Positions 24,082 through 26,839 of a stretch of DNA of 64,000 nucleotides are shown one piece after another. Source of the stretch: Candidatus Heimdallarchaeum endolithica (GTDB lineage Archaea > Asgardarchaeota > Heimdallarchaeia > Heimdallarchaeales > Heimdallarchaeaceae). The notes beneath the pieces are model-generated. The model ran no database searches. It was not told the origin of the DNA and saw nothing but the letters and a program-made list of their open reading frames with translations. The DNA lies in NCBI GenBank assembly GCA_021513715.1, contig CP084167.1, forward strand, positions 1,440,001 through 1,504,000, given 5' to 3'. Numbering within the stretch: position 1 is the stretch's first letter; each line of letters opens with the position of its first letter. A program made the position numbers and the translations under genes.

Positions 24082-24620
24082 TTACAATAAAGATTTTAGA
24101 GCTTTTCTATAATCATTAGTAGCTTCTTCAGGCATTGTTCCATTGATGAATATTCCTAGACTAGACTCTACAGCACCAAGAATTTTTAGTGACTGCTTAT
24201 TTCTCTGTGGACTGTGGAGTTTAAAATACATATGATAAATATTAGGACTTTCAGGAAAATTGAAAACTTTTTGATGAAGAGAAAGAGAATAACTTATTTC
24301 TTTACCAAATATTACAAATAAACTTTTAACTAGCTTTGGCAATAAGTTTGCAAAAGATACTAGCTCTTCTTGTCTACTCTCTTCCAATTTACTATAGCAC
24401 CTTTTTGGATAAATATATAGATCATAAGCATATTGAGCTGAAAAAGGAACAACTGCCATCACAAACTCATTTTCAAAAACAACCCTTAAATCAGTTTTTT
24501 TCTCAATTTCTAAATATTTACATATCATGCAAGCATTTTTTTATTTAAAAAATTTCCAATCTTTCTTAGTTCATTTTGAACAGTATGAGGAACAAATGAG
24601 AAAGCATAAATTTGCCCATG
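24082..24620 (-). pseudogene. galT: galT 3' fragment (galactose-1-phosphate uridylyltransferase) downstream of the insertion, with an additional 1-nt frameshift
   Basis: Resumes at 24620 as HGQIYAFSFVP...; the 7-T run at 24536-24542 is one base short of joining ...CMICKYL...VPFSAQYAYD...YSLSLHQ...GAVESSLGIFINGTMPEEA. Confidence 0.88.
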
Positions 24621-24820
24621 AGTTAATTTTTTGTACAATTTTCTCCTACTACGTCAGTGGAAGAATACAAACGCTAAAACAGATGTTTGAGCATACTGAC
24701 ATCATCTAGGAATCGTGGGACGCATAAAGAAGAGTAGAACTCTTCACTCCACGAGTACTAAGTATTCTACCATTATGGTATAATAGTACATAGGTCTATT
24801 TCAACCACTGGTTGAGACCC
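24621..24820 (-). ncRNA. Putative omegaRNA (reRNA) scaffold of the TnpB element
   Basis: About 175 nt between the tnpB stop and the element end, packed with nested stems: GTCAGT/ACTGAC, CAAAC/GTTTG, TCGTGG/CCACGA, GAAGAGT/ACTCTTC, GTACTA/TAGTAC, TACCA/TGGTA, TCAACCA/TGGTTGA. Confidence 0.65.
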
Positions 24821-26310
24821 CGGAAGGAAGTATAAAAGGTGAGACTAAAGTGTTGTCCAGTAAGATAATCAACTAGTGTAGATGCTCGGGGACGAAAAAG
24901 AAAACGAAGAAACAATTTCCCGATGTTGATTGCACAGGTAAGGTCAGAGTGAAGAGTATAATGGCAATGAGAACAATAAACAAGACCTCTAACAGGTCGA
25001 ATAGTCTTTCGTCCACATTTTGAGCAAAGAGAAGAGGTAAGATATTCCTGTAAGGTGAGGATACGTTCGGGTTCTAACCCATTTAGAAGACACATTCGTC
25101 GAAGAAGAGTAACTATTTGGTAGTAATTCCACGGGTGAACCTTTTTACGAGTAAAACGGGTAGAGGAGTTCTGTGGTCTGTAGTCTTGATTCATTACTTT
25201 TTTTCTTAATTTCGAGTGTACTCCCTTGGGGTAACCAACAACAACGACTAAATTATAATCCTGTGTAAGTTCAACAATATCTTTCCACAACTCATTAATA
25301 AAAGCATATAAATAAGCATGAGAGAGCGTCTGATATCTTTTTCTTAATTTTTTTAATGTTTGATATCCTTTATTGCTTCTTTTGTCTTTACATGTATTCT
25401 TCTTTTTTGCAAGTTTTCGTTGCAATCTTCTTATTTTCTGTTGATAGATATACTTCCTTTTTTTCCATTCTTTCATTTTCCAGAAGAAAATATGATTGGG
25501 AGATATTTTACCTGTTGATGTTAATAACACTCCTGCTCCAGGTATTTTTTCTCCCAGATCTATTCCCAGCACAGCTGGAGGAAGAAGAGAAGGGTCAACT
25601 TTTTTTTTCTTGTAGAGATCTGCTTGAGGAATAATTGTTATCTGAAAATTTACCCACCAACTGTTTTTTTGTGAGTTATATTTTAATTCTAGACTTTTTA
25701 CTTGTCCTTTTCTTATTTCTTTTTGGTGATATTCACTCATTTCTAGTGGTATCCATAGTCTTCGATGTGTTCGTTTTTTTCTTTTTTGTGTGTCTAATGA
25801 GTCTCTTATCCCTACCCAGCAACGAGAAAGAGTGTTTTTCCCTTTAGGCAAATGTTCTATGATAAATCTATTTTTATTGATTAGTTGTTTTCTTGTTCGT
25901 TTTACTGGTGGTAAAATATATCCTTTTTTTCTTTTTCTATTCTTTTTTTTGTTATATCCTTGTTCATAAAGTTGTACTGCTACATCTCTACACTCTTGAA
26001 ATTCATCGTGAGAACAATTAGGAAACTTTTTTTTGAGATCATAGGGTACAACTGTCCTTTTTTTCTTATTTGTTTTCTTTGTTGTTGTTAGTGTTAGTTC
26101 ATCTAACTTGCCTTTATGCACTTTTAGTCTTATCTCTCCTTGTTTGCTTATTTTTCTTATTACTTTTTCTTCTTCTTTTCTTATTATTTTTACATATTCT
26201 TCTATTATTCTAGTATCTCTTCCTGTTATCTTTCTCATTCTATCTTTTTTGAACTTCGTTAATTTTTCTGTTTTTACTCTTACTCTTAATGTTCTCACTA
26301 TTTTCTCCAT
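24796..26310 (-). CDS. tnpB: TnpB-family RNA-guided endonuclease with rearranged (Fanzor-like) RuvC-II
   Basis: RuvC-I VLGIDLG; canonical RuvC-II position reads VVVGYP (G instead of E); alternative Glu in LQEYLTSSLC; zinc finger CSKC...CSHC; RuvC-III HSDLTCAINI; highly basic, 504 aa. Confidence 0.9.
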   Translation of the reverse strand: MEKIVRTLRVRVKTEKLTKFKKDRMRKITGRDTRIIEEYVKIIRKEEEKVIRKISKQGEIRLKVHKGKLDELTLTTTKKTNKKKRTVVPYDLKKKFPNCSHDEFQECRDVAVQLYEQGYNKKKNRKRKKGYILPPVKRTRKQLINKNRFIIEHLPKGKNTLSRCWVGIRDSLDTQKRKKRTHRRLWIPLEMSEYHQKEIRKGQVKSLELKYNSQKNSWWVNFQITIIPQADLYKKKKVDPSLLPPAVLGIDLGEKIPGAGVLLTSTGKISPNHIFFWKMKEWKKRKYIYQQKIRRLQRKLAKKKNTCKDKRSNKGYQTLKKLRKRYQTLSHAYLYAFINELWKDIVELTQDYNLVVVVGYPKGVHSKLRKKVMNQDYRPQNSSTRFTRKKVHPWNYYQIVTLLRRMCLLNGLEPERILTLQEYLTSSLCSKCGRKTIRPVRGLVYCSHCHYTLHSDLTCAINIGKLFLRFLFRPRASTLVDYLTGQHFSLTFYTSFRGLNQWLK

Positions 26311-26403
26311 TTTCTAATCCTTTTTCTTCTTCACTTTCTTTTCTCTATTTATTAATTAAGCAATTTATTTAAAAACCTAAAGAATTTATACAAAAAATTT
26401 TTT

Positions 26404-26839
26404 CATGGGGGTGAAGAATTGAAGCACCTACATCTTTTCCAAAATTTTCGAACGGAAGAATATATTTTATTTTTTTATCTTCTTTTAGCTGTTTTGTTGC
26501 TTCTATCCATTTTTCAAAAATTGAGAGGATTTCATCTACCTTTAACTCATGAAATTTCTTACCATGGTCAGCACTATAAACTAGAACTTCACATTTACCA
26601 TAAGCACTTTTAGACTTATACAACTGATCCTCTTCTTTGCTCCAATAATCTACCTCTAAAGATAAGCTCGGGAATTTATTATCCAATCGAATAGGTTTAT
26701 TGATAAGGTCTTTGACTTCCTCAGAACCTTTACAAAAAGGGCAGAAATCCTTTTTCCTATCAGGTCTTCTTTGTCTTTTGGGTGCATAAATGATCCATTC
26801 ATCAAAAAAATAATTGTACCTAAGTTCACCCTCTGTCAT
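26404..26839 (-). pseudogene. galT: galT 5' fragment, ending at the HPH active-site motif
   Basis: ELRYN, APKRQRRP, CPFC, NKFPSL, GKCEV and FENFGKDVGASILHPH motifs, then reads into the element. Confidence 0.9.

Follow-up and report, generated by a model that had tools for sequence, protein, structure and literature searches.

A non-autonomous TnpB element with AT-core ends in galT of an Asgard archaeon, possibly mobilized in trans by a serine recombinase

The window analyzed here is a 64,000-nucleotide stretch (positions 1,440,001 to 1,504,000 of contig CP084167.1) of the closed, 3,326,783-bp genome of Candidatus Heimdallarchaeum endolithica (G000), which we compared with the genome of its sister H. 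aukensis (G006), also closed. Within this window, galT is split by a 1,787-bp element that carries a TnpB gene and an omegaRNA. The 5' half of galT (26405..26839, minus strand; PF01087, TIGR00209) stops at the second His codon of the HPH motif and is 80% identical to the intact H. aukensis protein. The 3' half (24082..24619, minus strand; PF02744) contains an additional frameshift near codons 169-172, recognized as a change of frame relative to the H. aukensis galT; this second lesion adjoins a homopolymer (window 24530-24550) and represents either post-insertion decay or an assembly error. When the element was removed in silico and one core was kept, galT read ...ILHPH-GQIYAF..., restoring the HPHGQ motif. 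The H. aukensis gene is intact, with the same motif and a single CATG, and corresponds to the empty site. These results confirm the predicted insertion into the galT active site. We found no other galT in G000, so the split copy is the sole galT of the closed genome.

The element body occupies 24620..26404 on the minus strand (1,785 bp, or 1,787 bp counting one AT core). CATG is found at both junctions (24617-24620 and 26404-26407), with the left AT core dinucleotide at 26405..26406 and the right at 24618..24619, where it doubles as the final two bases of the omegaRNA scaffold. As originally predicted, the element contains no transposase: its only gene is a 504-aa tnpB (24796..26310, minus strand). 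A TATA-like box about 55 nt upstream of tnpB (26364..26375, minus strand) is the putative promoter, and a T-A-rich box is found at the same place in related elements.

The tnpB product has the expected traits of a TnpB/OMEGA nuclease. Its RuvC residues (D251, E422 and D456) and the four Cys of its C4 zinc finger are invariant among 31 homologs, its predicted structure matches Cas12f and TnpB folds, and its profile matches include PF07282 above cut-off and NF040570 below it (E 9e-16). The usual RuvC-II Glu is replaced by Gly in a VVVGYP sequence at the canonical position, and the relocated Glu appears before the zinc finger. The protein also has private changes at the conserved sites C164 and C459. 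The Gly and the C-terminally shifted Glu resemble those of pro-Fanzors and Fanzor2, but the pro-Fanzor group is defined jointly by the shifted Glu and DPG at RuvC-I (10.1101/2023.08.09.552727), whereas the galT-element protein has DLG. The suggested link to Fanzors is therefore not supported. A quick tree placed the Cas1H-Asgard TnpBs (PMC10691335) as sister to the galT-element clade (about 30% identity, SH-aLRT 99), and the relocated Glu is common to both. In 51 of 95 loci (a set that includes loci fetched for that gene), the Thorarchaeal sister genes are paired head-to-head with a giant gene; the sister genes are followed by GTTCACTCA, the downstream motif of published aCas1 groups (PMC10691335). 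Fold comparison did not confirm a Cas1 fold for the giant gene, and its name rests on that published motif. Unlike the Cas1H loci, which lack AT-core ends, the galT element has no adjacent aCas1 gene or GTTCACTCA, and its right end reads AACTCAT. The aCas1-like giant partner was rejected as a mobilizer, because it was not found in 28 family genomes or G000 and its loci have other ends.

The 180 nt that follow the tnpB stop codon fold better than shuffled sequences (z -2.4), and the stems are conserved across 16 copies with compensatory changes. We assigned this omegaRNA scaffold, which has no Rfam match, to 24618..24800 (minus strand; 5' limit approximate). An internal hexamer (24720-24725 in the galT copy) forms a helix with the six terminal bases of the right end (24618-24623), as ATGATT/AATCAT or ATGAGT/ACTCAT depending on the family. 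The pseudoknot helix is 97.9% paired, and the galT copy has a compensatory G-C pair and one mismatch. Terminal pseudoknots are a general feature of omegaRNAs (10.1101/2023.11.20.567912), and because this one uses the element's last six bases, it places the end of the scaffold at the right AT and the guide in the host flank. The predicted guide (24598..24617, minus strand), placed by its position after the scaffold end, comes from galT itself and would target the empty galT allele. A search with TAM plus guide, allowing 3 mismatches, returned only the element's own junction and one 3-mismatch site. CboIStron has a 2-bp core, forms a circle and uses a TAM that ends in its GG core (10.1101/2023.11.20.567912). 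By analogy, we predict that the galT-element TAM is CCCCAT (26405..26410, minus strand), which ends in the core and precedes both copies of the element (n=2). RNA-guided, TAM-dependent cleavage by this TnpB is predicted from these sequence features. One TnpB subgroup differs in layout (L039:1007-1475, on G008:C72; L038, L040-L045, L052, L054-L057): beyond the scaffold end come a stretch of variable sequence and a conserved pyrimidine tract, and L039 has a second AACTCAT plus spacer, with a second right-end-like copy 180 nt further on. The guide of this subgroup may be carried inside the element. Several of these loci adjoin a gene for a HerA-like ATPase.

The second G000 copy (709114-710904) is 99.2% identical from core to core, and the galT element is real and recently moved. 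We compiled a junction table of 49 complete elements, 38 from G000 and 11 from G006, and found AT at both junctions in every one. The longer CATG does not hold as a family rule: it is present at both junctions of the galT copy, but only 23/49 elements are CATG/CATG. The flanks of copies were to show whether the duplicated 4-mer is fixed or variable; the AT part is fixed, and the four-base words are equal in 26 elements and differ in 23. Orthologous empty sites, which contain one AT, agree. Insertion into CATA targets gave CATG on the left and CATA on the right, and insertion into a GAT target gave GATG on the left and CATG on the right, which indicates that the inner junction bases come from the element and the outer bases from the target. 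The proposed 4-bp target duplication by a DDE transposase is therefore not borne out, and these sequence comparisons exclude a duplication of either 4 or 3 bp. What is common to the junctions is a 2-bp AT, which would look the same in sequence whether it arose from exchange at a 2-bp core, by duplication of 2 bp or by blunt insertion between the A and the T. The predicted action of a recombinase on a symmetric core is compatible with this pattern. The target consensus is (C)AT(G/A), with C in 47/49 and G or A after the right end in 48/49. The reconstructed galT site does read CCCATGGG, as predicted, but its palindromic character is incidental, since the second copy is inserted in CCCCATGAAG and only 3/49 targets are palindromic for at least 3 bases outside AT. 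Thus, the 8-bp palindrome is a chance occurrence, and no role for a palindromic target is indicated.

The predicted inverted ends were readily recovered. The identical 11-bp core AATTTTTTGTA belongs to the best inverted repeat of the region (27 nt, 81% complementary), left and right ends match at 21/30 positions, and over 24 positions they match at 17, compared to 8.8 ± 1.9 for random CATG-anchored pairs. Within families, the corresponding values are 14-19/24. The left-end subterminal motif (26386..26399, minus strand) consists of a T-tract and the near-palindrome TTGTATAA, and the right-end motif (24625..24638, plus strand) of a T-tract and the palindrome TTGTACAA, which is also found on the unrelated TnpB2 and MITE1 families. 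In most families the motif changes jointly at both ends (TTGTACAA, TTACGTAA or TTTGCG repeats), MITE2 being the weakest case, and subfamily s1 has tandem 10-bp units in its ends. The palindromic motif begins 6-9 nt inside the core, and conservation of the ends is lowest immediately beside the core. Published IS607 ends combine imperfect subterminal inverted repeats with short motifs and a 2-bp core (PMC6188088); the layout here resembles them more closely than it does DDE TIRs.

Many copies are truncated at the 5' side. In 8 of 13 informative breakpoints (counted by hand, two of the cases being at a single site), an internal AT(G) without a left-end motif is joined to host CAT; a rough binomial test gives p 4e-6, which overstates independence because the copies are related. 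The element side of three surrogate left ends lacks the C of CAT. These truncations are most simply explained by an enzyme that requires a single genuine end and accepts any AT that matches. Two other loci have unusual structures. A 33-bp element (L366:4000-4032, G048:C8) consists of two CATG ends with one common palindromic motif, and is probably a deletion between two palindromes. At a second locus (L061, G006:25400-29500), an element with a partial tandem copy behind it has flanks whose G000 counterparts are separated by 300 kb and inverted, which indicates that elements mark rearrangement breakpoints.

The same ends carry three unrelated TnpBs: the galT-element clade, a clade of 445-aa proteins, and a third, IS607-related lineage. 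The third (G000:597976-599493) lies inside AT-core ends at a GATG target, is 43% identical to an IS607-linked TnpB, and groups with TnpBs beside IS607 TnpA in the quick tree, on which the AT-core label requires four changes. Two gene-less families, MITE1 (about 350 bp; G000:699973-700330 and 6 more) and MITE2 (about 380 bp; G000:1324398-1324780 and 15 or more), share these ends and also contain a TATA-like box and a scaffold resembling an omegaRNA. The nearest MITE copies differ by 0.3%, and each insertion would give a new guide. The only Y1 tnpA of G000 has a MITE2 insertion at its 5' end (L003:1881-2250, G000 about 925.5-925.9 kb). In several Hodarchaeales genomes, TnpB elements and MITEs have 11-55 ends with this geometry. 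Overly permissive pattern scans of GTDB and IMG/VR gave matches that are mostly chance. No relatives were found in viral contigs or, with a single query, in a genome-contig collection.

The base at position -2 tracks the RNA/nuclease type. T is found at this position in 8/9 elements with TnpB2-type RNA, protein-less MITE1 included, versus 1/40 of the others (Fisher p 2e-7, a value that overstates independence because copies are related). The base is C in subfamily s1, and both galT-type copies have CCC. This pattern is consistent with TAM-dependent retention by TnpB, acting in trans for the MITEs; the alternative is a preference of the transposase.

We searched for the enzyme that moves these elements. 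All sampled loci of the galT-element TnpB family are solo, and we found no element that combines these ends with a recombinase gene. No end pair in G000 encloses a transposase or other candidate gene, and a 2.6-kb end pair in G048 was rejected as an autonomous element, because it encloses a host peptidase rather than a transposase. IS607 TnpA, a serine recombinase with an N-terminal HTH, was absent from the element, G000 and G006. The IS607 TnpAs of relatives were likewise rejected, since their elements have other ends. Beyond serine recombinases, G000 contains one Y1 gene, one tyrosine integrase and four DDE families with unrelated ends. Matches were lacking for IS110/IS1111 DEDD recombinases in G000, G006, G048 and G054, for IS630-type genes in five genomes rich in AT-core ends (G000 and G006 are among the genomes without a match), for Y1 in G006, G048, G051 and G054, and for tyrosine recombinases in G006. 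Closed G006 has 14 TnpB matches. IS110, IS630, Y1 and tyrosine recombinases were therefore rejected as mobilizers, because none has a common match across the element-rich genomes.

An exhaustive six-frame HMM search of G000 identified only two serine recombinases, both compact and non-IS607 (G000:316731-317450, L001:1216-1935; and G000:405351-406097, L002:1204-1950), and G006 has two such matches. Both are 240-250 aa, catalytically intact and integrase-like. They share the YxRxS and DRxSR motifs of large serine integrases such as Bxb1 and phiC31, and Bxb1 ranked first in the fold search. Unlike those integrases, they have no zinc ribbon or coiled coil, occupy fixed chromosomal loci and have no known att site. 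Compact recombinases are present in 29/30 Heimdallarchaeaceae genomes, in 0/52 other genomes of the class, and in none of 272 other Asgard genomes searched. They are obvious mobilizer candidates in the closed genomes. The Hodarchaeales genomes with 11-55 similar ends lack a compact recombinase, which, with the caveat of incomplete assemblies, argues against a universal role. A resolvase search found nothing in G051 and a single type, Tn3-like, in G048; both assemblies are incomplete, and multi-copy elements often remain unbinned. Paralogs of the compact recombinases occur in integrated elements (L271-L273), for which no boundaries could be defined. Because H. aukensis has no tyrosine-recombinase match, it may be speculated that the compact recombinases substitute for Xer in chromosome dimer resolution.

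Together, these results support the prediction that this Asgard TnpB element is non-autonomous, has conserved inverted ends and is moved in trans. We propose, with a probability of roughly 0.6, that it is an IS607-like element with a 2-bp AT core, mobilized by a serine recombinase in trans. The basis for this reading is AT at all 49 junction pairs with equal 4-mers in only 26, the empty sites, the GATG right ends of TnpB2 and MITE1, the subterminal motifs, the truncations at internal AT, the -2 base that tracks RNA type, the grouping of one AT-core TnpB lineage with TnpBs beside IS607 TnpA, and the precedent of CboIStron. A serine recombinase from elsewhere would bind the subterminal palindromic motifs, join the ends into a circle around one AT, and recombine this AT with one in the target by a strand exchange staggered by 2 bp. 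The choice of partner would be relaxed, so that an internal AT(G) could replace a missing end. TnpB would then read a TAM that ends in the core (about CCCAT), use the flank-derived guide to cut the empty allele, and thereby retain the element. The recombinase may be an IS607-type TnpA that was lost or visits on a plasmid or virus, which we put at less than even odds; we think it rather unlikely to be one of the two compact chromosomal enzymes.

The comparison with the IS607 family (IS607, IS1535, ISC1926 and CboIStron; PMC6188088, 10.1101/2023.11.20.567912) cuts both ways. As in that family, an identical dinucleotide is common to both junctions and a loosely defined target with no longer duplication, the ends have an imperfect inverted repeat and short motifs, the predicted TAM ends in the core, and tnpB is accompanied by an omegaRNA with a terminal pseudoknot. 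Unlike IS607, the core is the palindromic AT rather than the known GG, the motif is nearly equidistant from both ends, no tnpA is found in the element or the two closed genomes, and the sampled TnpA-bearing IS607 elements of relatives have other ends, which speaks against the proposed reading. On sequence evidence, the element thus appears to work like IS607 while failing two of its traits, TnpA and the core dinucleotide.

A DDE transposase could instead act in trans on true TIRs, giving a 2-bp AT duplication or blunt TG...CA ends between A and T. The ends are inverted and co-varying, the CATG target consensus is palindromic, the galT element can be read as TG...CA, and all six DDE-associated TnpB groups (DDE-1 to DDE-6, IS630-like; PMC10691335) have inverted, symmetric ends and solo copies moved in trans. 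We nevertheless regard this as quite unlikely. The junctions are compatible with such an insertion, but the terminal bases are not conserved, since TnpB2 and MITE1 right ends read GATG, and hence end in GA rather than CA, in several genomes. The AT-core elements also differ from DDE-associated TnpBs in that the five end-rich genomes have no IS630 gene and the duplication does not exceed 2 bp. In G000, the TIRs of the DDE elements are unrelated to these ends and their duplications are longer, and the search for a cognate enzyme was negative. Truncation at an internal AT without an end motif is at odds with two-ended cut-and-paste.

Of equally low probability is an enzyme class not yet linked to TnpB, an unannotated host or mobile protein that would bind the palindromic motif as a dimer and exchange strands at AT. 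It would account for two families with near-identical end geometry that share no recognized transposase, and for closed G006, in which Y1, tyrosine recombinases, IS110 and IS630 are all without a match. The youngest G000 AT-core copies differ by only 0.3-0.8%, but this makes them slightly older than the IS5/IS481 bursts (0%), so that a lost transposase fits equally well, and no candidate gene lies between such ends in G000.

Single-strand HUH transposition is very improbable, whether as Y1 peel-and-paste (TAM CCAT, right end in TCAT), which the original prediction had offered for exclusion, or as IS91-like rolling circle. In its favor, the scaffold has the same final CAT as the TAM, 5' truncation affects many copies and G000 contains one Y1 gene. 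That gene, however, belongs to a different IS605 (with MITE2 at its 5' end), 60-nt ends of four families folded as DNA show no hairpins consistently better than shuffles (a soft test, since control IS605 ends are also weak), G or A follows the right end in 48/49 without an explanation in Y1 target choice, three surrogate left ends lack the C of CAT, and G006, G048, G051 and G054 have no Y1 match. IS1341-type solo-tnpB elements and PATEs are tnpB-only and gene-less derivatives moved in trans, with Y1 hairpin ends and no 3' target preference. Unlike these, the AT-core group has no consistent hairpin ends and does have a 3' target preference.

Returning to the serine recombinase, an enzyme retained by the host (the compact recombinases or an unrecognized factor) could serve as a standing transposase for transposase-free elements, though we doubt it. 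On this doubtful reading, the shared AT-core ends would have acquired three mutually unrelated TnpBs and would give rise to elements that carry only a guide RNA and depend on TnpB supplied in trans, making an RNA-guided mobilome split among host recombinase, nuclease carriers and guide carriers. Should a serine recombinase of 250 aa prove to integrate at CATG with ends of 25 bp, it would be a very compact integrase and a case of a host enzyme that moves TnpB elements. If the mobilizer is merely a lost IS607 TnpA, then the finding is an AT-core subgroup of IS607.

The predicted architecture was held to be undescribed. We found no account of the AT-core group in a literature collection lacking most subscription journals, but IS607 ends (PMC6188088), the mobilization of solo TnpBs in trans and the exchange of TnpBs among transposons (PMC10691335) are already published. 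Here, two closed genomes hold dozens of recently moved elements and no recognizable cognate transposase, which, unlike fragmented assemblies, leaves a small, testable list of candidates. The AT-core family shows an exchange of TnpB lineages among transposon ends, as has been proposed to underlie the spread of Fanzors, in archaea that are near to eukaryotes, and it yields predicted TAMs for nucleases with rearranged RuvC domains (about CCCAT, CCAT and TCAT).

A further motif, CCGACA, lies upstream of one recombinase gene and resembles an end motif, but it is widespread in non-coding DNA and was therefore given no weight as evidence. As CCGACA(A/T), it is enriched in the non-coding DNA of G000 (83/159 versus about 20% expected; e.g. 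141810, 753971 and 3304348), is found in the ends of IS5-like, IS6 and ISH3-like elements as well as in Hodarchaeales AT-core ends, and is possibly a host-factor site.
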